Shown here: positions 7,635 to 50,631 of the stretch, piece after piece | Position numbering within the stretch: position 1 is the first letter of the stretch | Layout: each line of letters starts with the position of its first letter | Origin: Rhizaria sp. SCN 62-66 | Lineage: Eukaryota | Assembly: GCA_001724265.1 (NCBI GenBank) | Contig: MEDY01000004.1 | Coordinates: 124,001-188,000, forward strand | Direction of reading: 5' to 3' | DNA: 64,000 bases | The notes under the pieces: generated by a model | Databases searched by the model: none | What the model was told of the DNA's origin: nothing | Seen by the model: only the letters and a program-made list of their open reading frames with translations | Position numbers and translations under genes: made by a program

Positions 7635-10600
7635 ATGTCAGCAGACGTACGTATATTATGACTGTTAGACTACTATGATCGATTTTGAACGCATGCCATA
7701 AACTAAAAACTCATTTTTATGTCTATATTGTGTTACAGGATTGGGATATCGACGCGTATATCGAGGAGCGCATCGGTGGGGATAAGATCACAGCAGCGTC
7801 ATCCTCCCCGAGAAAGGCTCCCGCAGGTGAGTTCGCTTACGCCAGCTCAATCATTCCACCACCCTCTATGCAACAAACTACGGGCCCCGCGTTGGGTGGC
7901 ATCTATGCTATGGACGCGCGCTACAGTATGCCTACCGCGGGCCCCGCACTAGGATTGGGCATGGGCCTCGGCTTAGACCCCTCTGGCAACCTTCCGCCTA
8001 TTGCGGGCGCCACCTCGAGCGCAAGCACCAAGAGCGCGTCCGGTGCGGCAACGTCCCGCTCGCCCAGCAAGACGCGCGCCACGGGTAAGGCCATCCGCGG
8101 CGGCTCCGGCAAGTTTGCATACGTGTCGCCGCGCGAGTCGGCCCAGCGGCAGGCGCGCGCGGGCCGCCCCAGCAACAACAGCAACGCGCGCGGCGGCGGC
8201 CGCGGGCACCCGGGCTCGCCGCCGCCCTAGGACCGCGCGCTGGCGCAGGAGCTGATCCGGCGCTACGACCGCGAGCAGGCCGAGGCGCGCCGCGCGCAGC
8301 AGCAGCGCAACGACGAAATGGCCGCCGCGGCGCGCGCGCGCAACGCCGCCGCCGCGCAGGCCGAGGCGCTGGCCCGCGCGCAAGCCCGCGAGGCGGAGCG
8401 CCAGGACAAGATTGCGCGCCACGCCCGCGCCGCCGGTGGCAGCAGTCACGCCGGCGCCGTCGCCACCGGCGCGGTGGGCGCGCCGCTGGCCCGCGATACG
8501 CTGACGCCGCTGGCGGGCGCTGAGCGGGCGAGCCAGGAGAAGGTTAGCGCCCTGACCGCGGCGCCGGCGACGGACCTGGCCGCGATTGCGCCGGCGGACG
8601 ACGCATTCTCGCGCGCGCTGGTCAACAAGGTCGAGCAGCTCGAGGCGCTGGTGATCGTGCAGCAGCAGCAGCTGAAGCTGCACGCGCAGGTCGTGTCGGA
8701 GCTTAAGGGCCGTCTCGACAACGCGCGCCGCCGCACGCCCTACGGGGCCACCAGCGTGTATGGCGGCAGCTCTAGCTCCTCAGCTTCTGCGCCCCCGCGC
8801 GGCGCGCGATACCCCGTCCAGCGCGCGCCCCGCAACGCCCACGGCGCAAACGGCGCCGCGCCGCGCGGACAGGGGCAGGGGCTGGGCGATGCGGGCCGCG
8901 CGGCGCCGGACGAGGCGCGCGAGCGGCGGCTTCAGGCGCTAGTGGACCGGCTGTACCAGCGCAACGCGGGCCACAAGACCGTGTCGAGCGTCGGCACGGG
9001 CGCGCCGGAGCCCGCGGGCCAGACGCGCGGACCGCTGCGGGGGGCCGCGACGCAGGCGGGCCACCGGCGCATCGGCGCCGGCGCGACGCAGGCGCAAGGC
9101 CAGCACAACCCCGGCCGCACGACGCGTGCAGCGTCGACTGTGCGCCGTCCCGCGCCGCCGCCCGCGCGCCCCACCGAGAGCGCGACGACAACAACGACGA
9201 CCAAGCCGGAGGACAAGAGGGCTGAGGACGGCGGCAAAAAGGCTGTTGTGATTGTTGAGCCGTCTGCGGGGCCTAAGTCGGCGCGCGCGCTGTCCAAGCC
9301 GCGCTCGCCATCGCCGTCGCCGCCGCCGCGTACCTCGGCGCGCGAGCCAGTCAAGCCCGCCGCTGCTGCGCCTGCACCCGCCTCTGCCCGGACTTCTAAG
9401 AGCCCAGCACCGACGACTGCAAGGAAAGACAACGACAAGAAGCCCGAGAGTGAGAGCAAAATCAGCGGTGCTGAGACCGGCGCAAAGCCTGATGCCCGTC
9501 ACTCTGCGCCTCCCAAGCAGCGCGAGCCCAGCTCTAGTCCCCGCAAGCCTGCACCCGCTGCGACCGCGACGCCTGCGACCGCGCCTGCTGCAAGCAAGAG
9601 TGAGTCCCCTGTCCCGTCGCCCCGCGCCACTGCGCCGTCGTCGCCGGCCAAGTGCCCCGCTAAGTCTCCCGCCAAGCCTGCCGCGACGAACGCAGCCGCT
9701 GTTAGCACCGCTAAGAGCCCTGTGAAGCCCGCTAAAACAGAAACGAAGAGCACTGAGAGCAAGACGACTGAGAGCAAGAGCACTGCCGACGCTGGTTCAT
9801 TGTTGCTGGCGCAGTCTGCTCTGACTAAGGCTGCTGCTGCCGAGGACTTGAGAGCGCGGTCACAGGCTTCCGCCGTTGCCGCAGCGTCCGGCGGCGGCAG
9901 CGGCAGTGACGATGATTATGGGGATGACTTCGAGAACGACTTTGATGCGGCCGCTGCGGTGCTTGCAGATGAGCCTGTTGACAGTTCGGATGTTAAGAAG
10001 TCCGTACAGAGCGATTTTAAGCCCGCTGCTGCTACTGAAGTCGCCGATGATGTTGACGACATGTTCGAGGCAGTCGACGCGCTCAACGGCCCCTCCGCTC
10101 CTGTGGCGCCGCAGCCTCCGAAGCCGCTGGAGGAGGAGGCGGTGACGTCGACGCGCACGCTGCGCGACGGCGACAGCGCTGGCACAGGCAAGAAGAGCCC
10201 CGAGCCTGAGTCTTTGTCGGCCGCGTCGGTCGCCACCGTCACTGTGCTCGCCTCGGCGCGCGCGCTGCCGCGCCTGGCGGCCGGGTCCACCGCGAGCACC
10301 GGCGACGGCATTGCTGACGAGGTCCCCGACCCCGTGATCTTGCTCGTCGCCGTGCCGCGCGCTCAGGCCGCCACGCTGCGTCCCAACGCGCCCGCGCTGC
10401 GCGTGCCCGGCGCCGTGCTGCTCGCCGCGACGGAGCCGCAGCGGTCGACCGTGAACCCCGACTTCGCGTCACCGCTGCTCGTCGACATCCCCGTTGCCGC
10501 TGTTGTTGCTGGGGCCGCGGCTGCCGTCGGCGACGTTGTCGTCCGCGTTGAGGTGCATCACGCGCCCGGCCGCGCGGGCCCGCTTTCGCCTGCCGCAGCC

Positions 10601-12085
10601 ACTGCGCTGGGCGCCGACTCGCTGCTCTGTTCCGGCGTGTGCCAGCCCGCGCAGGTGGGTGCCCTGGCTGTGCGTGGACACGCTGCGCCCGTCGCAGTTG
10701 CGCTCGCGCCGGGTCCGCGCGCCGACTCCCGTGGCAGCGCGGTGACGGAGCCTGCGCAGGTGCTGCTGTGGGCTCCCAGCAGCCGCCAGCTCTTCACGCC
10801 GCCCCCCGCTGAGGCCCCCAAGCCTGCTGCCGCTGCTGTTTCCCCCGTTATTGCTGCGAACACATCTTTTGTGGCGGCGTCGCCTGCGTCGGGCACGTCT
10901 GCTTTTGCGGGCTCGCACGCTGTCATCCCCACCGCGTCATCCACGGCAGCGTTTGACGACGACTTCGAGTTTGATGACGCACACGTGAACACTGTTCCTA
11001 ACGACAACACGGCGCTCGTGTCGCCCAAACCCATGGCAGCGCCCGTGCCGGCGTCGCCTCCCGCGCCCGCAGCCGTGTTTGGCGCCGCGCCTTCGCTTGC
11101 ACCCGCGACGCCCGCGCGCCCACCTGCAGCTGTGCCGGTCGCTACTGCGACTCCGGCTCAGTCGGCTGCGCCCACGGCGAGCCTTGCGCTGCCGGCGTCT
11201 CCCGCCACCCAGCCCTCTGCCGCGCCTGTGGCTGCGTCAGCAGCGATGAGTGACCCCTTCGACCTTGATGATGAGCTTTCAATGTTTGCTGCGCAGCCCG
11301 CTGGTAGCGCTGCGAACAATGCTCCTGCTGTTTCCCAGCCTGCAGTTGTGGCGCCTGCGACTCCTTCGAAGGCGCCGGAGTCGCCTGCGAAGTCACCGGT
11401 CAAGCCCGCCGCTGCACCTGCGCCTGCATTTACGCCTGCGCCTGTGGCTGCCCCTGTCGCTGCCGTGCCTGCGCCCGTCCCCGCGACTACTACTACCCCC
11501 GCTAAGAAGCCCGCACCCAAGGCCTCGTTCCTTGACCACGATGATGACATGCTCAACTACACACCCATGCCCGCTGCTGCTACAGTCCCCGGTCCTGCTC
11601 CTGTCGCTGCCACTCCGGCCGTTGCAGCAAACCCCGCGCCTGCGCCTGCTCCTGTGCCTGTTCCTGTTGCTTCATCGTCAGTGTCGTCATCATCGTGGCT
11701 TAATGACGAGCCCGTTGTCAAGCCAGCAGTTGCTGTCGCCGCGCCCCTGCCTGCGCCTGCGCCCGTCCCTACGTACGCAGCCGCATCTCCCGTGGCGCCG
11801 TCCGCGACGATGACGACGGCGGGCGGCAAGTCTAAGCCCTCGATGCTCGCCGGACTCATGAAGCCGAAGCCCGCTGACGCCGCCGCGGCTCCCGCACCTG
11901 CTGCGCTCGCGACCTCTGTTGCCGCACAGGCTCAGCCCATGCCTGCTGCTGTGCCTGCGCCCGTATCAGCGCCTATGTTTGCCCCTGCGCCTGTTGCAGC
12001 CTCGGCAGCTGCGCCTGCGCCAGCGCCGGCCGCTGCTCCTGCAAAGAAGGCTGACGACGACTACGACTTCGATTTTGATCTTTAA
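7635..12085 (+). CDS. Uncharacterised ~1452 aa protein: coiled coil, KSP-rich linker, copine-type C2 domain, Pro/Ala tail with acidic-aromatic motifs; exons 7635-7646 and 7739-12085; in-frame TAG at 8228-8230
   Basis: ATG TCA GCA GAC|gtacgt...tacag|GAT TGG GAT ATC. ORFs 7685..8230 and 8318..12085 share a frame and are linked by 29 open codons (DRALAQELIRRYDREQAEARRAQQQRNDE). C2-like segment ASARAL...PDPVILL...TEPQRSTVNPDFASPLLVD...VRVEVHH. Ends TAA. Confidence 0.75.
7647..7738 (+). other. Spliceosomal intron (92 nt)
   Basis: Donor GTACGT, acceptor TTACAG, AT-rich, phase 0. Confidence 0.8.
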
Positions 12086-12646: not shown

Positions 12647-15600
12647 TCACCAGACGTTTTTGGCGAGGTGGAGCGCACGGAGCGCGAGCGTGAGATCGAG
12701 CAGCACGTGCGAGAGCGACGTCATCGCGTACATGAATGCCTGCTCGGTGAGCAGAAAGAGTGTGGGGTACATGGCGAAGCCGTCGGGCGTGGTGTTGACC
12801 ATGCGCTCGCGACACGCGTCGTCGTAGCTGTGCATCAGCTTCGCGAGGATCTTGTACAGCTGACGGATGCGCACGCGCTCAGTGGCCCACTCCATGACTG
12901 CCTCTTGCCGCGCAATCAGCTCATCCTTCTCGGAGTCGGAGGAGCTACTGCTGCTGTCGGAGCTGTCGCTGCCGCTTCCGCTGTAGTCGTCGTCAGAGTC
13001 GTCACGCCGGCCTGAACCACTGCGCTGCGGCTGCTCAGGCGGCTGCTGTTGCTGTTGTTGTTGCTGCTGCTGATGGTTTTTCTGCTCGTGGACTGTCTCA
13101 TGATGCTAATGGTGATGACCGTGGTGATGATGATGGTGATGGTGGCTGTGGTGCTCGGTCTTGGCTTCGTCGTGGTCCTTAGCGGCAGGCACGAAGATGG
13201 TATTGGCGCCCGCACGGCCGTTGTCCTGATCAACACGCGCCATGAACTCTTCCAAGCGTCGGTGCCGCTCATCGCGCTCGCGTTCCTTTTCTTCTACGGT
13301 CGCCGCGGACAGCCCGTGCCGCGACAGCGCCATGTGCGCGTGCGAGTTGCTGTGGTGCATCGCACTGCTGACGCCCGGAAGGAGACTCGACTCGTGCCCG
13401 CTAAGGCGGCATGCATGCGCGCTGGGCGAGCCAGTACGCGAAGGCGGCCGCGACAGCGCGGGTCCGGTACCGGCCGCGGGCGCGGGCGAGGGGCCAGAAG
13501 AGAGCGCGGCGCTGGCGCTAGGGGTCGCGTTGCCCGATGCAGTTTGCCGCCACTGCGCAACCATCTCTTGCAGCGACAGATGGAGCGCCGCTGTGCGCGA
13601 GGCCGCGACACTGGGGTGATAGACCGTCTGCGAGGCCCCGGGCAGCGGCGGGCGGCCCGCCGGGTCGACGGCCACGTGCGCCGGCCCAGGCACGCCCGCC
13701 AGCGCCGGGCTTACGCGCGTGCTGTGGGTCGACGCCGCAGGGTCAGGAGACGCGCCCGCCTGCGCGGGGCTGGCACGCGAACGCGCCAGTTCGCGCGCGC
13801 GCTCCTTCTCGGCCTTGCGCTGGCGCGCCTTTACGAAAGCACGCTTGTCCTTAACGCGGTGAATCTCGGCTTGCGCGTCAAAGTGCGTGCCAAACTCATC
13901 ATCGTCCTCAAGCATCTGCAGCTCTTCCAGCACCTCTAGCGACGGCTTTGTGCGCGAGAAAGACGAGTTGCGCGACAGCTGGCGTCCAAATGGCGCCACA
14001 GCAGTGTCAGGTGCAGCCTTGTCGCCGGTGTTGGCGGTCCCGGGAGCGTCGCCGTCGGACTCGGTGTCGCGGGCAGGGGAAGCGTTGCGCGAGCCCAGCG
14101 CCGCACCGCTGGCGGGAGAAAGCGCAGCGTTTGCAGCGGAGCTCTTTGGCAGCGCCGGAGCAGTGACCACAGGCGCGAACGCCTGGCGGTCGCGCTGGGA
14201 GAGGTCTCCTGCACTGGCTGAGTGGGCCATCCCGCGCGGCGCGTGCGCACGCGCCACCACAATCGTCGGCGGTGCAAGCTGGCTCTGATGCAGGAACTGA
14301 TGCTGATGAGTGTTAGTGGGCGCAGGCGCTGGAGTAGGCACAAGCACAGGCGCAGGTACAGGCACTGTCGTCGTTGTGGGTGCGGGCATAGCGTCAGCGT
14401 CAGCACCAGAAACTGGGGCGACGAGGGCAGCCTGTTTGCGCAGCAGCTCGTTCTCCTGTGCCTTGCTAGTTTCGAGCATCGCACTGATCGTCGCCAACTG
14501 CTGCTGCAGCTGCGCCTGTAGTGACGATGCACTGTCACCACCACTCGAAAGAACACCAGCAGCGGCGTCGGGGACAGTCGCAGTTACCGTGACAGTCGCA
14601 GGCGCGGCGGTGGCGGTGGTGTCGGAGCCGACCACGGAGTCCGAGGGCGAGATGACAAGACTTAGCCCCGCGGGACGCGCGGCGACCTGGCCAGACAGGT
14701 TGCTGGAGCGTGAGCGCGAACGCGAGGGAATGACGACAAGCTCAATCTCGCTGCCGAACGCAGTCGCGGGTTTGCCCTTGCTCTTGCGCTTGCGCGCGCC
14801 CTGAGCAGACTTCTTTCCGCAGCAGCACTCACCGCAGCACGCGCAAAAGCCGTTCCCACAACCAACACGTTTGCGCGCGCGACGGCGCTCCTTACGGCGT
14901 TGCTTGGCGGCCTGCTCTGGCGTCTTGGAGCCACAGATAATGTGGAGCATGCCGGCCTTGGACTCGTCGATGCGGTGGTTAATGTCGTGAATGAGCGCCA
15001 TGAGCACGCGGCACGCGGCGGCGACGAGCTCCGCCATCAGCATCGTCGTCGGCATTTCGGGCTTGGCCTCGTGGCGCAGGCGCCCGCCCGCGGCCGAAAG
15101 GTCGACCTTGGCGACCTTGGGCATGTGGGCCACAACCCAGTGATGCGCGAAGAGACATTCCTGCATGCGGCCCAGCACGCGCACAAGCGTGACCTGATGC
15201 GTGATCACTTCGTGCAGAATGTCGCACGAGATGGACCGGCCCAGGAACGCCGGCTCCGAGGCGACCTCGTCCGCGAGCAGCCGCTGCGCGCCGATGGCGG
15301 CGTTGATGCCCGCGAGCTTGGCCGCGACTTCGCGTTCGTACGCGGTCATGAACGACGTCGAGCTGCGACCCATGACCGAGTTGGGGAAAATCACCTTGAA
15401 CGCCTGCCGCATCGCTGAGTTAGCCGCAAACGGGTTCGCAGTCTGCTGAAGCTGCTGCTGTGCGGACTGATTAGCGCCACCAGCTGCAACAGCGGTGCCA
15501 GCGCCGATGCTCAGCTTGGCGCCCGTTGTGGGGTTAATGCCTGCGGCGGTAAGCGCCTCCGCGGCGACGCGCTCAGCCTCTTCGGCAGCGGACGGCGCGA

Positions 15601-18600
15601 GCGCGTATTCGTCAGCTGACAGCGCAGGCAGCAGCGTGGGCCCGAATACGATCTCGGAGAGCTCAGTTGATGCCGATGAATGGTTGCGCAACAGGTGGAA
15701 GTGCAGTTCAAGCGTTGAGGCCGAGGCCTTGAGCACGGAGACGATGCGCTTGAAAGCGCCAGTCTCGGCGCGCTCCGGCCACAGCGCGGCAGCCACGAGC
15801 ATCGAGACGAGCACGCCGATGATTGTCATCTTGATACGTGCTAGCGCGAAGGTCTCGGCGCCGATCACGGGATCGTAACCTAGTGCAACAATACTTGCGG
15901 CATAACCAGCGGCAAAACCGATGGGCCCGTTGTTGGGACTTGTGCGCAGGTAGCCAACAATGACGGACCAGAAGCCCAGCAGTGCGGCGTTGGCGAAAGC
16001 CCAGTCAGCACCGCGCGAGGAGTCGATTTCGAGGGCGAGAATTGCGACAAAATAGCCATACATCGCACCGAGAACGTTACCGGCGAGACGATTGAAGCCT
16101 GCGACGAGACTGTTGCCGACAGACTCTGTGAAGATGAGGCCAACTGTTATGGGGGCCCACTGCGGCACGTAGATGGTAAAGGGCCACGGGACCAACAAAG
16201 TCAGCGCACTTATCTCAATTGCAACCACGAAACGCAGCGCCGTCTTGATCTTGGTGATGCCCTTCTCGTCGGGCACCACAAGCCACTTCAGCGCAGATGT
16301 GAAGCGTCCCCACGCAGTGAGCTGCGCCGCGGGCGTGGTCTCCGCTGCGGGCGCGCCGGGCCGCGGCACGGCCGTCATGAGCTGCGGCGGCGGCTTCGGC
16401 GGCCCGTCGCGCGCGCGGCGCCAGAACTCCCACATCGCCGTGAAGACGTGCGGTAGCAACACGTCGACGAGCGAGTCGGCTGTGAAGAGCCGCGCCGGCT
16501 TGTAGTAAGTCGGCACGGGTGCGGGCAGCGGCACGTAGCGAGTCACTGAGCCCAGCCCGAGACCGAACAGCGTCTTGGTGTTGACATCGCGGAGCACCGC
16601 CTGCGCCTGTGATCGCACCGCCTCCTGCGACAGCGCACCGGCATGCGACGGCGGCACGTCGGGCTGCGAGGGCATCACCGTAGGCACCGACGTCAGAGGC
16701 TGCGGCTCCAACGGCTCTGGCGGCGGCGGCAACGGCGCTGTCGTCGTGATGCGGTTCGAGCTCTTGCGCGTGCCGCTGCCGCCCACGGCACCAATGACAC
16801 CGGCTGCAGGCTGCTTCTGCTTCTGCGCCGGGGCAGGCGTCGCTGCGGGCTTGTGAGCAGAAGCCGCAGCAACTGCAGCAGCATGCGCAGAGGCTTGCGC
16901 GGCCGCTGCATGGGCGGCAGCGGAAGCCGCCTCAGCGGCCTGCGCAGCGCCAAGCTTCTTAAGATCGATGGCCTCGGGCACGGCCTCGGCCGAGGCACTG
17001 GCGGCGGCGATGTCGACCATGGGCGGCATGATGTCGTCGGCGTGGGCCAGCGCGACAGGCAGCGTGGTGACGAGCGTGGACAACGGGTACATGTGGGGGA
17101 ACACGTGGGGCGCAATGCGGTGCACGAGGCGCGAGGTGAAGCGGTCGAAGTTAAAGAAGAAGTGGTTCATCACAAGCATGTCCTGCACTTTGACGAACTG
17201 CTGCTCTTCTGCGTGTTGGCGCTGGATCTCCTCGGCGCTCTTGCCGCTGAAGCCGCTCGTGACGGACGCGCTCGATGTGGGGGCGCTGTGCAACGGCATA
17301 GACTCAAGTCCAGGCCCAGTCCCGGGCACAGGCGCAAGCGGGGCCGCGGGTGGCGGCAACGGACCCTTTTTCTGTCCGAGCTGCTGCCCCTGCCACTGAC
17401 CCACACCGAGCGCGGGATCTTGAGCCTGGTCGGGCCCCGACGAGGGCGAGGGTGAGGAGGTCGGCGATGGCGACGCTCGAACACCGTTGCCAGCACAGGT
17501 GCTGGCATTGCTCTCGATGCGATTGAGCGCGTTCATCGAGGTGATGCGCTCGAGTGTGGCGGCCGAGTTAGAGTACTTGCCGCCGAGCCCGCGGGACGAG
17601 AACACCGCTGCGGCATAGTCAGCCGAGGCCTGTGATGACACGTCAACAAACGCGCCGCCGGTGGACAAAACAGGGCCTGCCGAGCCAGAGCCAGTGGCAA
17701 CACGCAGACGGGCGTTGCCCGTGCCCGAGCCAGCGCCATGAGCCCCGTTGCCTCCACTGGGATGGAGTGACCCGGTTGACGAGGTGCGCGACGCAAGCGG
17801 GTGAGCGCCAACAGACGCATTGCCGCCGCTGACGCTGTGGTGCAGCGAGGTGGCCGACGCGGCGGGCCGCAGCCCGGCGACAGCGGCGTGGGGCTGCTCT
17901 GCAAGCGCCATCGCGGCCGTCGTGGGCGGCAGTCCGATGCTCGTGATGGGTCGGTGCGAGAGCGTGTGTGACAGCGGCATCTGCTGCAGCGGGACCGAGG
18001 CCTGGTGTGGGTAGGCCGCGGGCACGGGCTCGTTGTCAGGCTCCACTACGACGCGGTTGCGGAAGAAAACGGACTTGCGCGTGCGCGAGAAAGTGCCCCA
18101 CATGTGGTGCAGCGACGCCATGAGCGTCGTGTAAGAGCCGGGAGCGTAGGGCGCGGAAAACGTCAGTGCGGCGTCGGGCGAGCGCAACAACATCGCGGTG
18201 ACTTCGTCGACTTCTTGCACGTCAGCGTGCTCCGCGGACGCAAACTGTACAGCCTCTTGCGCGTTCGTCGGCGCGTTGGGATCCACAACAGCATTTAAAC
18301 CGGCGCCAGTGTTAGCGGCACCGGCGCCAGCGTCCGAGCCCATCTCGATCGCGATGTGGTCAGGATACACGCTCTCGGCGGCCGCGCTAGTCGCGTCGGC
18401 CGCAGCGCGCTGGACGGGCGAAGTTGGCATCTCACCGGCCAACACGGCCGCAGCCGCGAGCGCGGCGTCGGGCTCAAGTCCGCGGGCCTCGCGCGGCGGC
18501 GGCAGAGCCAGCAGAGCGATGGACATGCCCGTGGCGGCCGCGCGCGGCGAGTCCGGGATCGAGTTGCGCCGCACGCGAGTTGCCACAGCGCCAGGGACGT

Positions 18601-21600
18601 GCTCATGCTGCATAGAGCCCGCAGCGTAGCTTTGGGGCATCGCGTGAAACGGCACGACACCGGGGTTCCCAGCAGTTGCGGCGCCACCAGTGGGCGCGGC
18701 CGTGTTCATGGCGGGGCTGGAGGCTTCGGCGGTGGTGGCAGCGTTGTTGGCGGCCGCAGCAGGCGCGCCTAGCACGAGTCGCACGCGCGCGTGGCGTTGG
18801 CCGCGCACCTCGTCCTCGTCGGAGGATGACTCATCCGCGTCGTTGTCTGGGTCCGCCGCGTGGTCCATACCAGCGACGTACACGCCGAGCTTGCGCAGTC
18901 GGTTCTGCACCGACGCGAGCTCGCGCGCCGCCGTCTGCGACGGCCGCCGCGCGCGCTCCGCGGGCACCGACAAGGTGTCCACGCCCGCAGCTATATCCGA
19001 GGTGGAGTAGCTCTCCGCGCGGCGTGGCACGCCGTCGGGCCCGACAGTGCCTGCGCCGACCGCAAAGGTGCGGCTGCGGCCCAGCACGGTGTGGTTGGTG
19101 TCCTCAGTCGCGCCGGGCAAAGCACCACCCCACGGGCCCTGCGTCTGCGCGTGCAACTGCGCTTGCGGCAGTGTGTTAGCATGTTGGAGCAGACCATGTT
19201 CCCCGTCACCAGCAGTCTCAATGTGCGGGGCGATTCCGGCGGCATCCGAGGCGGCGCGCGCACGCACAAGACCGCCCTTCTCGACATCAAACGCGTCGTC
19301 GTCCTCTTCTTCGTCGCAGACCATGGCGGCGTCACGCGAGGCTTGCTCGGCGACCACGGACCGCGCGCTCTGCTGCACACGACTCGGCGCACCGCGGCTC
19401 TTGCCACCTAGACTGCTCTGGCTGTGGCTGCGGCTGCGGGCCGTCGCGGCCAGGTGCTCTGCCGAGTGCGGCAAAACCTCGAACTCATCAGCAATTGCGT
19501 CAGCCTTAGCGGCTGCGGCGACTTCGCGGAGCTCAAGGTCAGCGTTAAGCGCAGCCGTGGCCTGTTGCACTGCGCGGTCAATGCCGAAAAAGGCGTTGAT
19601 GTAAGTGGCGTCGATAGGCGCAAGGTCGTCGTCCTTGGAGACCATCTTAAAAACGAACTCCTTGACGGCTTTGGTGACGTGGCGCATGTCATACTGCAAC
19701 TCCTTGACAAAGGTGCTGTGCATGTACGCACCCGTAACATCCATACGCGTGATTGTGCTCAGCGCCGTCACCATGCCGCGCGCGTTGGACATCATACCGG
19801 AAACCTCGGCCAGGAACTGCTGCGCTGACGTCGACGAATACGGCACGAACGCAACGTGCTTGGGTGAGCAGAACGGCGGGTAAATCGGGTCAGGTGCACG
19901 GAGACCGAAGCCGTTGTTGCGCTTCATGCGCCAGTGGCGCGGGCGGAAGCAGCAACAGAAGGCCTTGTAGAGCGTCCGGTGCAGCCAGGACTCGGCCTGG
20001 AGGTCAGGCAGCTCGGCAATCGAGGCCGCAACTTCGGCGTCAATCTTGCCGATTAGAAACGTTGCCTCCTTGATGAAGAGGTACGTGAACGGCAGCGACA
20101 CTGTATTCGTGTTGGCGGTAGCGATGTGGAGCCCACGGAGGTCTTTGAGCTCGTGCATGCGGTCGATCTTGTCGCCCACGTCGGGCCCAGGCGCGTCGGA
20201 CGCGCGCGAGTGGTAGGTGCGGTCGTAGTTGCTCTGCGTCTGTGTGTGCGAGTGACCGTGCGTCTGGGTGCCCGATTGTGCGTTCGTGTACGTTTGCGAG
20301 CCTGGGGACGAAAAATGGACGCCGCGGTCGCCGTCTGCGTCCACGCGCACGTTGCGATCGCATCCACTGGCGTGGCCATCTGACCCCGTGACAGTCACTG
20401 GCAGTGACAGCGGCGCGACACAGCTAGCGACGCCTGCGTAGACAGGAGACAGAGGCACCGGCGAGGTCAGTCCTGAGGGCACAAAACCAGAGGCAGAGCC
20501 AGTGGCCACGGTCGCAGTCTTGGGGCGGACCGTTGAAACCGAGGAGGAAGGCGGCAGTGAGGGCAAGATAGGACCTGGCGGCGGCGGCAGCGGCCCCTTT
20601 GCGTTATCGCCAGTTTCGAGCCGCAATGCGGTCACAGGGGAGCTCTCGACAAAGGCCATGGGCGACGACAAGGCCGAGACCGCGGGCATCGTGGGCACAC
20701 TGACTGTAGGCGGGATCTCGGAAGGCGGAGCCATGGGCGCTACGGCAAGCCCCGCAAAGGAGGTGCTACCCGAGAGACCCAGCTCCCGCACAATGTGGTC
20801 CTGCTCGCTGCGGCCGCGGCCCTGGCCATCTCGGTAATCGCTGTCGCTGTTGCTGCTTATGCAGGCGTCGTTGAAGCTCGACGCAGGCTCCAGCCAAGTC
20901 GTCTGTGCAGCTGCTCTCGCACCAGCACCAGCACCGGCGGCGACACCTAAGCGCGCGTCCGAGATCGTGGCGGGGAGAACGCGGGCGCGCGCACCGGGGC
21001 TGCTGTTGGTGGTCACAAAAGAGACCTGTCCGGCCAGGGGAGCCGACGCAAGCCCCGACGCATAGCCGGTCAAAGGGGCGCCGGCCACGGGCGTGGACCC
21101 GTGCGCAGGCGTGCCGTTGGCGGGCCGCACGGCCATCAGGGGCACCATGCCCGGCGGCGCGCGCGCAATGGCGGCCCGCATGGCCGCGTACGCTGCGGCA
21201 CTCGCATTCGCGCTGGCACTGGAGCTCGATCTCCCAGAGGCCACGGGCGACAGTTGCTGCGAGAACGCGTCCAGCGGTGCGTCTGGCAAGCCGGGCGACC
21301 CGGGCCCGGTCGGTGCGGTGACCGTAGGTACGTGGTGCCCAGTAGCCCCGGCCTTACTCCCTGTCGGAGAGCTGACGCCGGGGCTGGCGAGCCCGCCGCC
21401 AACGCCGCCGGTGCCAGTGCCAGTGCCGGTTGGAAACCCGGTGCGGAATCCACCGTCGCCGTGGTCGGGCGCGGCGTCGTGCTGGTCGTGATCGGGGTGC
21501 CGCGCGGGCAGCGAGAGCGTGGCGTCGTCGCGCGTTCTGAGCGTGGTACTGTCGGCAGCGGAGAGAAAGCCGTTGGACAGCACGTAGAGCAGGCGCGACG

Positions 21601-22577
21601 AGTGCACCAGGATGCGGTGGGCGCGCGCCTCAAGCGTATCCGAGGCAAGGTGCGGAAATGGCAGGATCGCCATCACGAGGGCAACAGCGACGCCAGCGAC
21701 GGCGCAGGCGAGCGTGTTAACTGGGTACCACCAGACATCACCGCGCCAGAGGAAGACGAAGATGTTGGCGGCACTGAAGCCCCAGAAGAGGCGCATGTGC
21801 GGCGGCATCATGTCACCCTGCAGCATCGCAAGAACAAAGTAGACGATCGCGGAGCCCAGGCCGATGCCGAGGCGCGAGAACGGGAAGATGAGCGAGACGA
21901 GCATCGGCGTAATGGTCGCAGCGACGAGGCCGTAGATGGCCCAGCGTCCGAGACGCATTGATGAACCTAAACTAGTGGAGGACACCATGATTCCAGGAAC
22001 TACAGTACAGTATGGAATAAATGTGAATTTACCGCGCGTCGTTGGATAGACGCAGAGTAGCACTAGCACAAACGTCGTAATGACAAGACTGCAGAGGAGG
22101 GATAGAAAGAGGGCGAGAGAGTAAGTGAGAGAGGTTGATGGTGAGCGCGTGAAAAGCTTAGAATGAGAAATAAACATGAAGTTAGCGTCAAAGAAAAGTG
22201 CACGATGCACACGGCATTAAATTGGGTTGCTTGGCGAAGGTCCGGCGTCCCCAAGAGCCTCCTGGCAGCAGGCACCAGAGTGCTAACACCTGTTAACCGG
22301 CGCGGGATCGACGGTCTACGTACCGGATAACGCTGCGGACCCGTCCCCAAATCGGAGTCATCTGAATCTTGCGACGAAAGCGCTTGTACCAAGGCACGCG
22401 AACCTGCATGTTGTCCGTGGCGGGAGCGTATGGTTCTGAGGGAAAAGCTGTGTCTTTGATCGTGCGAGCTTCCATCTTGAGCTTGGTGGCCACGACGTCT
22501 TCAAGCCCATCAGTGGGCAAAGGTAGGTCAACCCGCGTGGGTGACCGACGCGACGCAGGGCCGGTGGCGCTGCTCAT
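12647..22577 (-). CDS. Giant FUSC/ALMT (aromatic acid exporter-like) membrane protein, paralogue A; exons ~22577-22324 and 22088-12647; ~3231 aa; in-frame TAG at 13108-13106
   Basis: Two hydrophobic blocks; the second reads KTALRFVVAI...QWAPITVGLIFTESVGNSLVAGFNRLAGNVLGAMYGY...ALARIKMTIIGVLVSMLVAAALWPERA, typical of FUSC/ALMT. The C-terminal ELIARQEAVMEWATERVRIRQLYKIL domain shared with paralogue B lies beyond the TAG in the same frame. Start could instead be the ATG at 22649. Ends TGA. Confidence 0.8.
22089..22323 (-). other. Spliceosomal intron (235 nt), phase 2
   Basis: ATC CG|gtacgt...ctctgcag|T CTT GTC; same position and phase as in paralogue B. Confidence 0.85.
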
Positions 22578-23886: not shown

Positions 23887-26800
23887 TTAGTCCCAGACGT
23901 TCTTGGCAAGGTGAAGCGCACGCATGGCGAGCGTGAGATCGAGCAAGCACTGGCTCAGCGAGGTCATGGCGTACATAAAGGCCTGCTCAGTAAGTAGGAA
24001 TAGTGTCGGCAGCACAGCATAGCCACCGGGCGTCGTCCTGGTAATGCGGTCACGGCACGATTGGTCGTAGCTACGCATGAGTTCAGCCAGGATCTTGTAA
24101 AGTTGGCGAATACGAACACGCTCAGTGGCCCATTCCATGACTGCCTCTTGCCGCGCGATCAGTTCTTCATCCTCGGACTCATCATCGCTCGTCTCGCTAT
24201 CATCACTCTCATCACTGAGTGCGTCCTCGCCATCCTCCTCGCCGTAGTACTCGTCCTCCACTTCTGCAGCGGCATCCTCGTTCGAGCCGGGCGTGCGCTC
24301 AGTCGCAGCCGCAGCTGTTGACGCGTCTGCGATGGATTGGACCGCAGGGGGCGAGACGCCGACCTGAGATGATCCCCGGTCTTGCGCACTCGCCAACGGT
24401 ACGTTAATCAGTGAGCGACTTGCGTCGGACGCCACGGGGGATTCTTGAACCGAGCCTACAGCAGTCGGAACAGGTGCACCCGCGATCGACGCGACGCCAG
24501 CTTCTGTGGCTGTTGTCGCTGCCGCGCCCTGCTGTTGCTGCAAGGGTGAGAAGACGCTCGCAAGCGAGACCGAGGGAGCAGGAGGAAACCGTGCGCGCGG
24601 GCGGAAGCTGGCGCCATGTCCGCCGACTGACATACCAACACGCGCGCCAGCAGCGGCCGCGGTGATCGTCGCCCCAGGCGAGGGCGCAGGCAGGGGCGTG
24701 GCCCCAGTGCCTGAACGGCGCGAGGAGATGGTGTTGTATGCGGTGACTTCAACGCGCGCCATAAAGTCTGCAAGCTTGCGGCGGCGCTGCTCGCGCTCGC
24801 GCTCCTCGCGCGCACGGGGATCAAGCGCCATCAGCTGCTGCAACCGCGCGTGCGACTCAGTGTGGGGCAGCCCGCCAGCGGTGCCCCCGCCCAGCGGCGG
24901 CGATGGTTGCGGAGAGACATGCGCGCCCGCAACCAGGGCGGGGCTTCCTTGGCGCGGGATCAAGGAGGTGCCGTTGCCTGCAACGGCATTGAAATTGGGG
25001 CTCGAGTTGTTGTGAGCGTGCATCATGTCGACAATCGAGGTGAGGCTCTGGCGCGGAACGGCGCTCACAATCCCGGGCCCAAAGCCCGTGCTGGTGCCCG
25101 AACCAGCGTTGCGGTGGCTGGTGTGGGACGCGTAGACAGTCTGGGAAGACAAGACGCGGCCCAATGGCGGCAGACGCGACGAGCTGCCCACGCGACTCAG
25201 CACCGGCAACGCAGCCGCACCAGTATTTCTGGGGCCGAAGCCGCCAACAGAGTCGTACGCTTTGCCATTGCTCATTAGCGAAGCGCGCGCCTGCTGCAGA
25301 GCACCAGCTGTCGGCCGCGGAGATCCAGCAAACGGACTCGGGGCGCCTACACTGCCAGCAGCACTGGCACAGGCAGCGGGTGGCGATCCGCGGCGCTTAG
25401 CATCTTTGCGTGCCTGGCGTTCGCGTTCGCGCTCCTCCGCGCGCAAACGCGCTTTTTCACGCTTGCGGCGCAGGCGAGCGCGATCGATTTCACCCTGCGG
25501 ATCGTAGTCACCATCAAAGTCATCATCGTCCTGCAGCATCGCAAGCTCTTCCATTATATCAGCGTTCGGCGAGATCCCCGCGGGCGCGGGCGACGGGCGC
25601 AGGTGCGAGGCCGACGAGTTACGCGTTAATGGTCGGCCCGCGGCTTGCGCCAGCGCAAGCGCAGGTGTGGATCCTGCAGGCTCCGCGCCGTTACCCGCGT
25701 TGCTTAGGGGGGTAGAACCACGAGATGAGGCCGGCGCCGCGCCTGCTGGTGACAGCATCGCACGGTTTGGACTGGGCGAGCGCGCTGGACCAGCACCCGT
25801 GGCGAAGGACGCACGAGAAAGATTTCCAGAACTGGCGGACTGTCGTAGTCCAGGCGGGCGCGAAGGATGCGACGAAGGCGGCGGCAGCAGCAACGATGTT
25901 GGCGGCAACAACGATGATGATCCGGCGGGCGGTCCCACGACAGTGCTGCTTCTATTAAGTTGAACAGAAGCTTGTGCTGGTGTAGTCAGAATCTGGGTCT
26001 GCACTTGATCATGTGCCTGCTTCTGCGCTTGCTGCTGTACCTGCAGAGAAAGCAGCTCGGCCTGCTTGCGATGAAGCGCCTGCTCTTGTGTTTTACTACT
26101 CTCAAGCATCGCGTTCAGCTGTGCCAGCTGCTGCTGCAACTGCGCTTGCAAACCTACGCCGTCTAGCGGCACTGAAGTGCCTTGGGGCGCAGTAGCACCA
26201 CGTGGCGCAAGGGTGCCTGATGGCGCTGTGTTGCTCGATGACACTGCTTCACCAGGCGGCGCCGCAGTTCCAGGAACAAAAAGTCCAGTTGTGAGCACAG
26301 GCGTAGTCATTAGCGTCACAGACGTTGCGGGCTGCTGTGGCGCAGGTATGGAAGCTGTGGTTAAGGCAGCCGTAATGGGCTTAGGGGTTGAGACACCAGA
26401 GGCTGCAGGCTCAGCGGGCGGCGCAACAACGAGGCGCAGCGGCGCGTTAGGCGCCTGTGTCGGGGCGGAATCGTTATTTTCTGCAGGTGAGAGAGTGACA
26501 GTAACGCAAACAGGTGACAATACTGCCATCTCAAGGTCTCCGCTATTGCTTCCATTATTGGCACTGATGGCCATTTGCTCGCGTGCAGGCTCAGGTTCGC
26601 TATCGTCAGGACGATGTCGGTTGCGGCGATGGTTGCGGCCACCCACGCGCGTATCATCATGTGCCGAGGACTTGGTGTCGTCGCAGCAGCAACTCTTGCA
26701 AGGCAAACAACTGGCAAGCGGCCCAAGGCAGCCCGGACAGCCTCCACGCTTTTTGCGCGAGCGCCGCGCGGCGAGCACGGGCGCGTCCACATCATGCACT

Positions 26801-29800
26801 TGCAGAAACGAAGGCATCGGCACCAGACCCGCAACGTTGTGCTCAACACGGCGGTTCACGTCGTGGATTAACACGATCAGGATGCGGCATGCCGCTGACA
26901 CGAGATCCGACATGAGGGTCGCGGTACGCACGGCCTCGCCCCGGATGCGATCCGTGTCAGGGATGGAGGTGCCGTGGGGACGGTCTACACGAGCAACCTT
27001 AGGCATGCGCGAGATAACCCAGTGGTGCGCAAACAAACACTCTTGCATGCGACCCAGCACCCGCACGAGCGTGACTTGATGCGTGATGACTTCGTGCAAA
27101 ATGTCGGACGGAAGACTGCGACCAAAGAGCGCAGGCTCAGACAGCACATCGTTGGCAAATGTGCGCTGGTCCGCGATCGCAGACGACATCGCCGCAAGTT
27201 TAGCTGCAACTTCGCGCTCATACACAGCCATAAAAGAGGTTGAGGAACACGTCGCGACTGCAGTCTCTGGAAAGATAACGCGGAACATGTGCCGCATCGC
27301 CGAGTTGGCCGCGAATGGGTTCAGCAGCGGCGCAGGCGATTTAAACAGACCAGGTGTCGGCACAGCAGTAACCAAGCCTAGCGCTGTTACAGGCATTGAT
27401 CCACGTGCATCTTTGCTGGCAGCCGTGTCTGCTGCTCCACCACTAATACCTGCGGCTCTAGACTCTGCAACGGCTTCGTCATCAGCGGAGAGGGCGGGCA
27501 ACAGCGTAGGACCAAAGACAATCTCAGAAATCTCTGCAGAGGCTGCTGAATGGTTATTGAGCAGGTGTAGGTTGAGCTCAAGACAAGATACCGATTCCTT
27601 GAGCACACGTGCAATACGCTTAAAAGCGCTTGTCTCAGCACGTTCGGGCCACATGATGGCGGCAACAATGGTGGCTGCGAGAATTCCAAGCATAATCATC
27701 TGGATACGCGCGAGAGCATAATCGTTGGCGCCACGCTTGGGGTCGTAGCCGAGCGCAATTGTGTTTGCGGCAAAGGACATGATAAGACCCATGCCACCGT
27801 GCCGCGGCGAGCTGCGCACGTAGCCTGAGATGAGAGCAAAAAATGACAACATACCGATGTTGGCCAGCGCCCATGTCTCGCCTCGCAGAGGGTCAATTTC
27901 GTAACAGATGGCGGCTGTAACGTAGCCGTACATGGCACCAAAGACGTTACCCATGATACGATTCATTGCCATGACGAGACCACCACCAATAGATTCGGAG
28001 AAAGCAAAACCTACAGTTAGCGGCGCCCACTGCGGCTGGTAAATTGTGAAAGGCCACGGCACTAAGACAGTCAGCGCCGCCACCAAGTGCGCAACAGTAA
28101 TTTTGATCGCCAGTTGCAGCAATTTGCGCTGCTTCGGACCCCACTCTAAGAGCCAGCCCAACGCCTGACGAAAACGCTCCTTGAAAGGCGCCTGCGCGCT
28201 GGACGCCGGCACGACTGGCGCGGGTGCGGCCGGCACCTCACCGTGTTCGCCAACGCCACCCTGCACAGCAGGCAGCTGCTGGACTACGGGCGTGGGCGTG
28301 CCATAGCAGCAACGCTTAACGAACTCGGCCAGCACAAGAATGCAGTAGGGCGCAAAGAACTCAACAATTTCACGAAGGGTCGCCAACCGCGGCGGCTTGT
28401 AGTAACCGGGCACGGGTGCGGGCAGCGGTACATACCGCGTCACTGAGCCTAGTCCGAGGCCAAACAGAGTTTGCGCAGTCACTTGACCCGCAGCAACGCT
28501 TGCACCCGCAGCGGCCGCGGCAACGAGTGCGGCAGCTGCTGCAGGTGATCCAGGTGAGATGGCGTCGGCAAGCGATGTCTCATCCTCAGCGACATCGATC
28601 TCCCCGCCCGCCGCCAGCGTCGGCATGATATCGTCGGCGTGCGCCAGCGCCACGGGCAGCGTGGTAACCAGCGTTGAGAGAGGGTACATGTGGGGAAACG
28701 CATGCGGGGCGACCTTATGCACCATGCGCGACACGTAGCGATCAAAGTTGAAGAAGAAGTGATTCATCACGAGCATGTCCTGAATTTTAATCATTCCAAT
28801 CGACTCATCTTCTTCTTCATTCTCATCCCCTGAGTCTTGGCCTCCATTGCTGCCCATACGGTTCTTGATACGCACGCTCTTCTTGCCAAGACTGTGAGAT
28901 GAACTAGAGCCAGAGACTAGGCGCTTCGGGCCGCCACGACGAGCAGACCTGCGCTTGCGCCCCGCAGCACTGCCACTACCAGTGTTCAGGCCACCAAGGC
29001 TATGTGTGCTGGTGCTGTCGAGCCCGTTGGAGCGGCTGTGCTGGTGATAATTGCCGCTGCTACTACGCTCTGGTACAACGGGCAGCGGCGGCGCATTGGG
29101 CGGTGGTAGCGGCTTATGCGGCGGCACTGTTGTCGACACAATGGGTGTTCCAACGGCATTGCTGTTGCTCATGTTGCTGATGCTGTTGTGGCTCGCTGCA
29201 TAGTTGAGTCCGGTCTTTTGAGCCACACGCTCGAGCGCGACGTCCGAGTTGGAGTAACCACCAAAGGCAGAGAACACGTTGGCGGCGTAACTGGCGGCTA
29301 CTTGTGAGGGCAGATCAACGAATGATCCTCCCGCGGAGCCTGTGGCAACGCGCAGCCGCGTGCGCGTGGCCGCGAGTCCGCCCTCAGTCGCCGGCTGCAG
29401 ACGAATTGGCGCCTCACTGACGGTGCCCGAGCCGGTGCCACTGATGTTGGGTTGCGGCAGCGATGCGAGGCTTGTGAGCGAGGGAGGACGCACCATCGAC
29501 TTGACAGCGGCGTCAACGCGCAACTCAACCTCAGGGTCCAGGTTTGACATTACATCCGCGGCCGCAGCTGCTGCAGCAGCAGAGGCGGCGTCTGCGGCGG
29601 CGACGCGTTGGCGGAAGAAGAGTTGCTTGCGCGTGCGGGAGAAGGTGCCCCACATGTGGTGCAGCGAGGCCATTAGCGTAGTGTAGGAGCCCGGCGTGTA
29701 GGGCGCGCTGAGAGTCAGCGCCGAGTCCGGCGACCGCAGCAACATAGCCGTTACGTCATCGACGTCTTGCACGTCAATGACCTCGGTCCGCGGTAGCGTC

Positions 29801-32800
29801 TCTTGTTCGTTCCATACCGTGTTAGACCGGCGCTCGCGCACGCCGGTGCTGCCAACGCCAGTGGAACCGGCGGCAGAGGGCGCGGAGCCGGCAGACACAG
29901 CAGCAGCGGCAGCAGTGGCCTCAGCAGAGAGTGTGGCCGCGGTCCCGACAATGGCGTTGGAATCGGGCAACAGACCCATTTCAATCGCAGTATGTCCGCT
30001 TCCAGGAATACCAGGAATCGCGCCTGTCGCAGGATTCACGGGCTCGACAGTGCCTGCGGCAACGCCGGAGCGCGGCGGCGGCACGTAGAGCGGCCGCAGT
30101 GTCGCCGTTGCCCCGCCAGTAGAGGCTGACGGCGGCGCGAGCGAGATCTGAACGCGCGCGTGCCGGAGTCCCGGCGCGGCCTCGTCGTCAGAGTCTTGGT
30201 CTGCGCCAGTGTCGAGGTCGGGGTCCGCCGTGTTGGACGTCACGCCCTCGACGAATACGCCGAGCCGTGCCAAACGGCTTTGTACGCGCGCGGCCTCATA
30301 CGCCGCCGCCGTGCCCGTGTGTCCGGTGCCGTCGACAGGTGAGCCGGCCCAGGAGTCTGAGATGGATCCGCGCCGCGTAGCGTCACCGTCAACAAGCATG
30401 AACTCCCCCACCGCGGAGGAAACACTTTGTTGGCGCGCGCGCAGCGTACGCGCATGCGTGCTCGTTGACGGCAGCACAATGCGGTTCGCAGGCTCGCGTG
30501 TGCCCTGCGCCACAGCTGAAAAGTCGTCCTCGTCCTCCTCCTCCTCCCCTTCCTCAGCGACAGTAGCACTGCCGTTTATCTGCATGTGCTACGCAGCGGT
30601 GCGGCGTGACGAGATCGATTGCGAGGGCGGGCGCTGACGCGAAATCGAGCGCGAGCGCTTAACCAATGACTCGGGTACAGTAAAATTGTTGTTATCAACC
30701 GAAGGAGCTCCCCCCAGGTTTGCAGGATGTGGGGGGGCAGCATCACCAAGCACCGCAGCGGCCTGTTGTGCAGCGCGGTCAATGCCAAAAAATGCGTTGA
30801 CATACGTCGCATCAATGGCGCGCGCGGCATCGGACTTGTTGATAATCTCAAAGGCAAAGTCCTTGTATGCGCGCGTGACGTGGCGCATGTCCGTCTGTAG
30901 CTCCTTGACAAACGCGCGGTGCATGATAGCGCCAGAGATGTCCATCTTTGTGATCGTAGTCAGCGCCGCAACCATGCCACGCGCGTTTGAAACCATACCA
31001 GCAGCTTCTGCAAGGAACTGGCGCGCAGAACCAGGGGAGTAAGGGGCCTGGAAGGCTTGGCGCTCTGACAGGAACGGTGGGTAGATCGGGTCCGGTGCAC
31101 GGAGCCCAAAGCCGTTGTTGCGCTTCATGCGCCAGTGGCGCGGGCGGAAGCAGCAACAAAAGGTTTTGTAGACGGCACGATAAACCCAAGATTCGGCTTC
31201 AAGATCAATGACCTCTGCCATGGATGCCGCAACATCGGCCTCAATCTTATCGATGAGGAAGCGCGCCTCCTTGATGAAAAGGTATGTAAAGGGCGACGAC
31301 ACAGTGTTGGTGTTGGCCGTCGCATAGTGCACACCACGCAGTCCCTGCATCTCGTGCATCTTATCCAGCTCGCGCCCGCTGCCGCGCAGAGAACCCCGTG
31401 CACTCGCCAGCTGCCGCTGCTTAAAGTTGCTCTCCACAGTCTTTGGTGGACCACGGGCGCCAGCAAGCACGGCCGCGGCGACTTCAGCTGCATCAGAAGC
31501 GGCGAGCGCGGCGGCGCTGACGGGAGCGACCACATTGGCGGGGTTGGCAATGTAGATGCCGCTGCTGCTGCGACCCAGCTGTATGCCCGGAAGAGGCTTC
31601 TCCGAGCCGGTCTGCGAGTGCGACTCGGAGCGCGCCCGGTCAGAAGCCAACGGCTGTGGAGACACGGGCGAAAACAGTTCACCAGGCGGAGGCAGCGGAG
31701 CTTTATTATTGCTCTTCGCACTCTTTTGCGAAGCACCTGAGTTAGAGCGCGCATCCCTCGTTGCAGTCGTGTTGCTCACAGCATGCGGGGGTGACACACC
31801 GGGAAAGTCATCACCCTCATCTGATGAGCTAATTGCACCGAGAGAATCCGCGCGCCGGACGCGCGGATCTGCGCGGTCTCCATCCGCGAAGCCACTGCTG
31901 TCAAAGTCATCGTCGCCGTCGCCGATGGGCGAGAACACTGCGTCAGAGTCTCCGCTCAGCGAATAGTCGAGCTGTGCAGCGGCGCCACGCTCAGCGTCGA
32001 GATCGGCGCTAGGTGCGGCCGCAGTGCGCGGGGCGGAGCGCGTCTCGGCCACAGGCGATGTCAGTGCAAAAGGCGTCGGCAACACCACATGTGCCATTCC
32101 GGACATGGGTGGCGTCGCCAGCGCCATCGGCTGCAGCCCTAGAGGCTCAATCGCAACCGCAGGCGGCTGAGCTGGCGGCATGGCAGGCAGCAAAATCGGC
32201 GTTAGGCCCAGACCGCCGGGGCCAGAAACAAGGGGCACAGGGACACCAGCAGCTGGGACAGTCGTCGCAGCAGGAACTATCGATGCAGGGATGGAGAGGG
32301 GGGCAACAGCTGGCGACGCGCGCGATTGCGGGGCGGCAAACGCGCCAGCACTCAGGGGACCCGCGCGCGGTGACGGCACCACGGCCTGTGGCAGCGTGAC
32401 AGTGGGCGGGATCGTGCCAGTGGGCGGCAGCGTAAGCATCGCCGGCAGCGTTAGCGGGACGGTGCCCGCGAGCGGCAGCACGCCGACGCCACCCAGAGGC
32501 AGGCCGAAGGAGGCGGCGTCGGGCAACGGCAGCGGCGGCGAGAGCACTGCACCCGTGGTCAGGTGAGGCTGCTGCGCGAGAGCGTTTGGGGGCATCGGCA
32601 TGGCACTTCCGCGAGGGAGCACTCCCAACGGCAGCGCAGTCTGCGGCAACGTGAGCTGGACAGGTGATGCGGAGTGCACTGGCAGCGCAGGGTTTAGTAG
32701 GCCGGACTGCGGAAGCGCGCCAGGCTGCAGCGGCACATGCGGCATAAGCGGTGAGAAAGCAGGCGACCCATGAAATTGCGGCCACACCGGCGCCGGCGCG

Positions 32801-49867: not shown

Positions 49868-50631
49868 ATGGGCAACGTTTTCGGCGAAGAGAAGACCATG
49901 AAGCGTACGTTTTTCTTGCTCCATTGCTCTATCCAAATCTACCGGACTCTTTGTGCCTGCCGAGCGTCTCGTTGAAATGAACTCACACACACGCATCTAT
50001 GCTTCCTCCCTTTTCATCGTTCGTCCCCACAGAGGTCCTGCGCGAGCAGAAGCGCATGGTCGACCGTTCCGTGCGCTCGCTGGAATCAGAGCGCTCGAAG
50101 CTGAAGCTGCAGGAGAAGAAGCTGATCGGCGAGATGAAGAAGATGGCGCAGGAGAATCAGCTCAAGTCGGTCAAGATCATGGCCAAGGACCTGATCCGCA
50201 TCCGCAAGCACCAGGAGAAGTTCATCAACCTGCAGGCGCAGCTGCGCGCGGTGTCGCTGCAGATGCAGGCGATGGCGTCGACACAGGCGTTGACGGACTC
50301 GATGAAGTCTGCGACCAAGGCGATGCGCATGATGAACCGGCAGATGAAGCTGCCGGTGCTGCAGAAGATCATGCAGGAGTTCGCGAAGCAGAGCGAGATG
50401 ATGGAGATGGGGCAGGAGGTTATGGGCGACGCGATTGACGACGCGATGGAGGACGAGGAGGACGTGGCCGAGAGCGAGCAGGTCGTCAACCAGGTGCTCG
50501 ACGAGATCGGCATCCAGATGAGCGACCAGCTCGTCAATGTCCCGGGCAAGTCGCGAACGGTCACAGAGGACACCGTCGCCAAGACCGAGACCAACGACGT
50601 CGAGGCGCGCCTCAACAACCTCGGCCACTAA
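49868..50631 (+). CDS. VPS2: ESCRT-III subunit VPS2/CHMP2; exons 49868-49904 and 50033-50631; 211 aa
   Basis: MGNVFGEEKTMKQVLREQKR...VKIMAKDLIRIR...QAQLRAVSL...MNRQMKLPVLQKIMQEFAKQSEMMEM...VNQVLDEIGI...VEARLNNL (MIM1-like end). Ends TAA. Confidence 0.95.
49905..50032 (+). other. Spliceosomal intron (128 nt), phase 1
   Basis: AAG C|gtacgt...ccccacag|AG GTC restores the VPS2 N-terminus. Confidence 0.9.

Follow-up and report, generated by a model that had tools for sequence, protein, structure and literature searches.

Gene A, a giant gene on the minus strand of the 64,000-nucleotide stretch of DNA analysed here (Rhizaria sp. SCN 62-66, GenBank assembly GCA_001724265.1, contig MEDY01000004.1, positions 124,001 to 188,000 of the forward strand), is interrupted shortly before its conserved C-terminal domain by a single in-frame TAG, and three further genes, its tandem paralogue B, gene C and probably gene D, carry one such codon each. 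The whole stretch is referred to below as the window, and positions are counted from its first letter. In three to four of its 13 genes the in-frame TAGs are flanked by sequence that is selected or coding-like, and for this window the statement that UAG is translated is well supported. The original prediction had proposed as much for the TAG of gene A, which most likely is translated, because three more genes of the window have an internal TAG and none of the 13 genes ends in one.

The TAG of gene A occupies 13106..13108 (minus strand; context CAT TAG CAT CAT) and lies, as first described, within a His/Gln tract, where the minus strand reads CAC GGT CAT CAC CAT TAG CAT CAT GAG around 13108-13106. 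Upstream of it a stop-to-stop scan gives 3,036 open codons, back to 22216, of which ~3,020 from the first ATG form the 5' part of the gene (13109..22177) and encode a membrane protein of giant size whose FUSC_2 domain is a borderline Pfam match (E 1.3e-5; 25.8 bits, with the cut-off at 25.6). Downstream, the frame remains open for 152 codons (12650..13105), exactly the number originally counted, which encode a His/Gln and acidic/Ser linker followed by a C-terminal domain (12650-12934) that ends ...ELIARQEAVMEWATERVRIRQLYKILAKLMHSYDD...ALHLAKNVW before a TGA at 12649-12647. These 152 codons have a guanine-plus-cytosine (GC) fraction of 0.61, against 0.37 in the spacer beyond the TGA, and their codon-usage score, from a log-odds model for which eight other genes of the window served as training set, is positive in the frame of the TAG only; by homology, GC and codon score they are beyond chance. 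The first ATG after the TAG comes 70 codons on, at MEWATERV, and since it falls inside the conserved domain, a restart of translation there could not yield the conserved region. An acidic, Ser-rich stretch that precedes the C-terminal domain in both A and B also lies upstream of this ATG.

The end of gene A had been noted to resemble that of paralogue B in protein sequence while differing at many synonymous sites, and this holds on closer counting: over the last 95 codons the two genes share 77% DNA identity, with 11, 8 and 47 differences at the first, second and third codon positions. The purifying selection suggested from this pattern is borne out by a nonsynonymous rate (dN) of 0.134, a synonymous rate (dS) of 1.15 and a dN/dS of 0.12 across the same 95 codons. 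The 152 codons are homologous not only to B but to six other metagenomic proteins, and a domain profile search among 1.84 billion representative proteins recovered eight proteins, all metagenomic and none with a functional name. One of these matches (P0003) is the domain of A itself, as a gene call that begins at the first ATG beyond the TAG. In the full-length relative P0005 (2,393 residues) the domain forms the uninterrupted C-terminus (residues 2305-2391), and in the fragments P0004 and P0006-P0009 it likewise stands at the C-terminal end. Fifteen positions do not vary among seven relatives, and gene A retains every one of them; tested likewise, B retains 15 of 16. From an alignment of eight sequences the domain is predicted to fold as two long helices, a two-helix hairpin (mean predicted local distance difference test score, pLDDT, 75.6). 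On this comparison of sequences, the domain beyond the TAG appears to be a real and intact part of protein A. For three relatives, P0007, P0008 and P0012, the gene calls are far shorter than their contigs allow, and one of them starts at a conserved internal Met; relatives of this kind may have internal stops or introns too.

Genes A and B are tandem paralogues (12647-34410) of a giant FUSC/ALMT-like membrane protein family of ~3,200-3,500 residues. Paralogue B (23887..34410, minus strand) consists of 1,273 codons, a TAG at 30589..30591 (context GCG TAG CAC ATG) and 2,233 further codons ending in TAA, and both parts are homologous to A. The part before the TAG corresponds to the N-terminal third of A, as in MHEMQGLRGVHYATANTNTV of B, which resembles MHELKDLRGLHIATANTNTV of A; the part after it has Pfam matches to ALMT (26.8 bits against 20.6) and, at the borderline, to FUSC_2 (25.6 against 25.6). 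Comparison of A with B over blocks that align well gives a dN/dS of 0.18 for 263 codons before the TAG of B, 0.21 for 630 codons lying between this TAG and that of A, and 0.13 for 108 codons beyond the TAG of A, and the linkers around the TAG of B are of similar length in the two paralogues without the removal of any sequence. The frame of B opens immediately after a TAA (34300-34500, minus strand), with homology to the first membrane helices of A and no ATG; a small 5' exon and an intron probably lie upstream. The TAG of B is also placed at the start of a five-base loop in a small hairpin, CUGCGU-AGCAC-AUGCAG (30576-30596, minus strand), which is not distinct from shuffled sequence, and nothing similar occurs at the other three TAG sites.

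As neither gene C nor gene D has a paralogue, both were scored by codon usage. Gene C (41658..49265, plus strand) is Ala-rich, matches no Pfam family and comprises 406 codons from its first ATG, a TAG at 42876..42878 (context AGG TAG CAC GCT) and 2,128 codons ending in TGA; in the stop-to-stop scan the open frame before the TAG amounts to 413 codons. A single frame scores +0.80 just upstream of the TAG and +0.60 just downstream, and GC in the part before the TAG is 0.72, as against 0.30-0.49 in all 12 intergenic spacers of the window. Were C to start only after the TAG, it would therefore possess a 1.2 kb "promoter region" with a GC of 0.72 and a strong codon signal, unlike any spacer in the window. 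Gene D (7868..12085, plus strand, if it starts at ATG 7868) has 120 codons, a probable in-frame TAG at 8228..8230 (context CCC TAG GAC) and 1,284 codons ending in TAA; the open frame before the TAG contains 183 codons, of which those 120 follow the first ATG. Within one frame the 120 codons score +0.43 (GC 0.72), and the 29 codons from the TAG to the next ATG score +0.95 (GC 0.76), the highest coding score of all segments. Gene D is thus probably the fourth gene with an internal TAG.

Taken across the window, the use of stop codons is uneven. Genes A, B and C are each a single frame broken by one TAG in the stop-to-stop scan, and among ~18,250 codons in 12 genes there are three internal TAGs (four with the upstream part of D), no TAA and no TGA, a TAG frequency of ~0.2 per 1,000 codons. 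At the ends of 13 genes the numbers are TAA six, TGA seven and TAG zero; assuming that TAG makes up 20-35% of stops in GC-rich eukaryotes, the chance of none in 13 is roughly 0.004-0.06. Segments flanking all four TAGs have positive codon log-odds only in the frame of the TAG, sliding codon-score windows stay positive through all four, and the 3' untranslated region of A is negative in every frame. The flanks have a GC of 0.59-0.76, against the lower values of the 12 spacers and 0.45 in an intron of a tetratricopeptide repeat (TPR) gene. The codons that follow the TAGs are CAT-CAT in A, CAC-ATG in B, CAC-GCT in C and GAC-CGC in D, so that His follows in three of four cases; of 12 genes, 10 have a purine directly after the true stop.

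More than one assembly contains the TAG of gene A. A contig of 1,909 bases (L001), assembled separately from metagenome data, agrees with the window in all 760 aligned bases, this codon included, and the TAG of B is covered with zero differences by a contig spanning 29603-31599 from the public runs X2 and X3, which return identical figures and are possibly one data set. In the contigs of four public runs, 13033-13155 is masked as repeat, which makes them uninformative at the TAG of A. Contigs from polyadenylated (polyA) RNA fall on both A and B with zero differences, those on A at 13583-14042, 18325-18672 and 21413-21672, and are consistent with expression of the two genes; carry-over of DNA is possible.

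The surroundings of these genes are eukaryotic in character. Coding blocks are GC-rich (up to 0.76) and separated by AT-richer spacers (12 of 12, as above), the strand of the long open reading frames alternates along the window, and the encoded products include an HSP70-like protein, Utp21, a methyltransferase, a TPR protein, a BPL/LplA ligase and Snf7/ESCRT-III. The TPR gene contains an intron of ~166 bases (~53027-53192, minus strand; GC 0.45) with two in-frame TGAs and a 3' end reading ...ttctccag; introns thus exist in this genome, although the organism is intron-poor, and this one was used as the non-coding control. The small Snf7/ESCRT-III gene (49981-50631, plus strand) has a Pfam match with E 1e-35 and a TAA stop; an antisense open reading frame with high third-position GC overlaps it and is probably spurious. 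Utp21 is a protein of the nucleolar U3 small nucleolar ribonucleoprotein. Beyond the copy in the window, its nearest relatives are metagenomic (76% and 50% identity), followed by one transcriptome (40%), and identity to named plants, oomycetes, Thecamonas and fungi is only 30-35%; on the strength of these identities the host is treated as an uncultured eukaryote without a close sequenced relative. The protein atlas classes it no further than Eukaryota.

DNA of the window is present in bioreactor, wastewater and activated-sludge metagenome runs from 2015 to 2025, a polyA RNA library among them. Contigs from these runs, which belong to several studies, are near letter-identical to the window, with one differing base in the pieces listed, and such near-identity reflects either a very uniform, widespread organism or else shared data. 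A scan of metagenome contigs for more DNA of the host or its relatives returned one locus only, identical to the window, and queries with Utp21 or the C-terminal domain alignment gave zero matches among genome contigs and zero among viral contigs.

We consider it fairly probable that UAG is a codon for an amino acid genome-wide in this organism and that its genes end in UAA and UGA. Under such a code, the change would be a full stop-to-sense reassignment of UAG or an ambiguous intermediate, with the codon read by a UAG-reading tRNA, recognition of UAG by eRF1 weakened, and the rarity of the codon owed to the GC-rich genome or to the youth of the change. Gene A would then make one protein of ~3,180 residues, with the conserved two-helix domain at its C-terminus encoded after the TAG, and B, C and D would likewise be single proteins.

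Several observations weigh against this reading. The sample is small (13 genes, four TAG codons), and the TAG of D is the one of the four without support from homology. All four codons fall in poorly conserved, low-complexity linkers, where truncation or any residue might be tolerated, and none occurs in the HSP70-like, Utp21, methyltransferase, BPL/LplA or Snf7 genes with their well-conserved Pfam domains. Among the RNA contigs listed, none crosses a TAG, and the 64 kb window contains no tRNA gene, no Rfam match and no eRF1 gene to back decoding of UAG. The codon is far rarer (four in ~18,250) than in the rhizarian exLh, for which 384 UAG in 71 genes are reported (PMC5304391). That the internal stops are TAG only is weak evidence in itself, because 66% of random nonsense mutations on this codon usage would be expected to give TAG, and three out of three would do so with p ~0.29. 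Furthermore, a His codon follows the TAG in three of three firm cases (chance 1.3e-5, calculated post hoc, with the case of A trivial in its His tract), and this bias counts against full reassignment because a reassigned codon should need no particular context. The bias is compatible with readthrough confined to particular sites and also with an ambiguous reassignment, still part-way, in which the release factor competes.

The first of these, a standard code with programmed or tolerated readthrough, in which a weak context and a near-cognate tRNA would let enough full-length protein be made, gains from the neighbourhood of the codons: CAT or CAC follows three of the four TAGs, as against a purine after 10 of 12 true stops, a pyrimidine after a stop is a poor context for termination, and C-A follows the three firm TAGs in every case (chance 2.3e-4, post hoc). 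UAG-CA also begins the published readthrough motifs UAG-CAR-YYA and UAG-CAR-NBA (PMC3159437), but the four sites fit neither, three having CAY and then no YYA or NBA and the fourth starting with G. Eight folds of the downstream and surrounding sequence are not distinct from shuffles (z -1.65 to +0.68), and the 120-nucleotide folds downstream of the four TAGs (z -0.58, -0.90, +0.33 and +0.68) give no sign of the structures that stimulate readthrough of types II and III. The TAGs of B, C and D stand at ~36%, 16% and 9% of the protein, where they do not yield C-terminal extensions; a frequency of four readthrough genes in 13 would be extreme, and the absence of TAG from all 13 gene ends would go unexplained. 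Readthrough therefore seems unlikely to us. It is quite improbable that the TAGs are real stops, left by nonsense mutations or gene splits, such that A lacks its domain and B, C and D are two-piece or dying genes, possibly with a restart at an ATG. Gene callers do divide these genes in this manner (P0001, P0002 and P0003), an ATG follows two codons after the TAG of B and eight after that of C, TAG is, at the 66% given above, the commonest nonsense codon to be expected, and dN/dS against an old paralogue (dS ~1.5) is blind to a recent loss of constraint. Yet three to four of 13 genes would have to be broken by exactly one TAG, with no frameshift or other stop in more than 9,000 codons, while the upstream and downstream parts share one frame in all four genes, the domain of A is intact at 15 of 15 invariant positions, the next ATG of A lies within that domain and the 29 codons from TAG to ATG in D score highest of all.

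Two further explanations are weaker still. Restorative RNA editing of the TAG, for instance A-to-I conversion of UAG to UGG for Trp as in sexual-stage filamentous ascomycetes, is a mechanism that exists and favours UAG and hairpin loops (PMC11156358, PMC10776026), and the TAG of B does lie at the start of such a loop. The loop is found at one of the four sites only, though, and no fold is distinct from shuffles; the host is not close to the ascomycetes, its best named Utp21 matches being 30-35% identical, and editing would leave the zero TAG terminators unexplained. Seventy-one genes are a small fraction of the Fusarium graminearum genome. That is how many genes of this kind are reported there (PMC10776026), as against four of 13 here, and we regard editing as highly improbable. 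The same can be said, even with the two taken together, of short introns with lengths divisible by three and of errors in assembly. The TPR gene does have an intron, with its two in-frame TGAs, and every TAG ends in AG, like a 3' splice site, but that intron is AT-richer (GC 0.45) and looks non-coding, whereas the flanks of the TAGs have a GC of 0.59-0.76 and positive scores right up to the codon. No real joints were found, all joints having at most 25 letters on the shorter side, and the linkers around the TAG of B are similar in length to those of A with nothing taken out. Masking of the site of A in the public-run contigs leaves room for an assembly error, against which a second assembly gives the TAG of A unchanged and contigs from other runs do so for B.

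If UAG is a sense codon, the residue it specifies is a separate matter. The original prediction had favoured Gln, an assignment that finds no support here, on the ground that TAG is one transition from CAG. That argument proves weak, since a His codon is two changes away from either of the other non-His codons of the tract, AGC and GGT. Reassignments of UAG alone have been published for both Gln and Leu (PMC5304391, PMC11687900), and in yeast the residues reported for near-cognate readthrough at UAG are 92% Tyr, 5% Gln and 3% Lys (PMC4150775), so that by analogy with yeast Tyr would be the likeliest residue if the codons here were read by near-cognate tRNAs. A search for an orthologue across the TAG of A, with residues 2300-3187, retrieved only the window's own two gene calls among 2,618 scored candidates, and a 201-residue query across the TAG of C found nothing among proteins of 353-2,000 residues. 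The alignment of A with B sets the TAG of A against Ser (regional alignment) or Ala (full-length alignment) and that of B against Arg; all were rejected, the linkers and the region around the TAG of B not being reliably alignable.

The closest parallels are the known changes confined to UAG. In exLh UAG stands for Leu, and its genes are reported to end in UAA (56) or UGA (15); in Iotanema spirale it stands for Gln (PMC5304391), and in phyllopharyngean ciliates for Leu or Gln (PMC11687900). The window shares with these an in-frame UAG without in-frame UAA or UGA and gene ends in UAA or UGA only, a pattern likewise read in sequence from an uncultured organism: coding or selected flanks occur in three firm genes and one probable gene of 13, and no gene ends in TAG. 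It departs from them in that UAG is very rare, has so far been found in unconserved linkers, precedes a His codon at three of four sites, and belongs to a GC-rich non-ciliate genome from a lineage without a close named relative. The ambiguous codes of Condylostoma, Parduczia, the karyorelicts and Blastocrithidia (PMC4967479, bioRxiv 10.1101/2022.04.12.488043) offer a second comparison, since there too a stop codon is translated inside genes and context may affect how it is read; there the codon serves as a terminator as well, and several or all stops are affected, whereas here TAG alone is involved, with none of the 13 genes ending in it. Type I readthrough, with UAG-CAR-YYA in tobamoviruses and UAG-CAR-NBA in yeast (PMC3159437), resembles three of the four sites in the C-A after UAG and differs in that the third base here is a pyrimidine, the next codon is not YYA or NBA and the sites are deep inside genes. 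As for the proteins, A and B have one FUSC_2-type transmembrane block like that of the FUSC_2 and ALMT families (PF13515, PF11744), but they are about ten times as long as the Pfam domain, are mostly low-complexity and have at the C-terminus a two-helix domain peculiar to the family, for which eight metagenome-derived proteins are the only matches.

More tentatively than for translation of UAG as such, we suggest that an uncultured, deep-branching, GC-rich eukaryote, met repeatedly in wastewater bioreactors, may be in the course of losing its UAG stop, at a stage when the change is young or the codon still little used. UAG would already have gone from gene ends, and its rare entries into long genes would fall in fast-evolving parts, with a preference for sites ahead of a His codon, at which the release factor would recognize it least well. 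If this is true, a nuclear code change has been caught part-way, outside the ciliates. To our knowledge, UAG-only nuclear code changes are confined to a handful of eukaryotes, most of them ciliates and most with heavy use of the codon, and the literature searched reports no code change in a wastewater or a GC-rich non-ciliate eukaryote. There is also a practical consequence, as standard gene callers cut at TAG, so that A, B and an 82-residue fragment stand as separate entries in protein collections; with proteins split at each TAG, the proteome of the host is misannotated in the collections searched. If confirmed genome-wide, the organism would add an unplaced, GC-rich, non-ciliate lineage to the small set of UAG-only nuclear code variants, and a codon avoided at gene ends and used about once per 5,000 codons would show reassignment at an early stage, with a bearing on the codon-capture and ambiguous-intermediate models of how genetic codes change.

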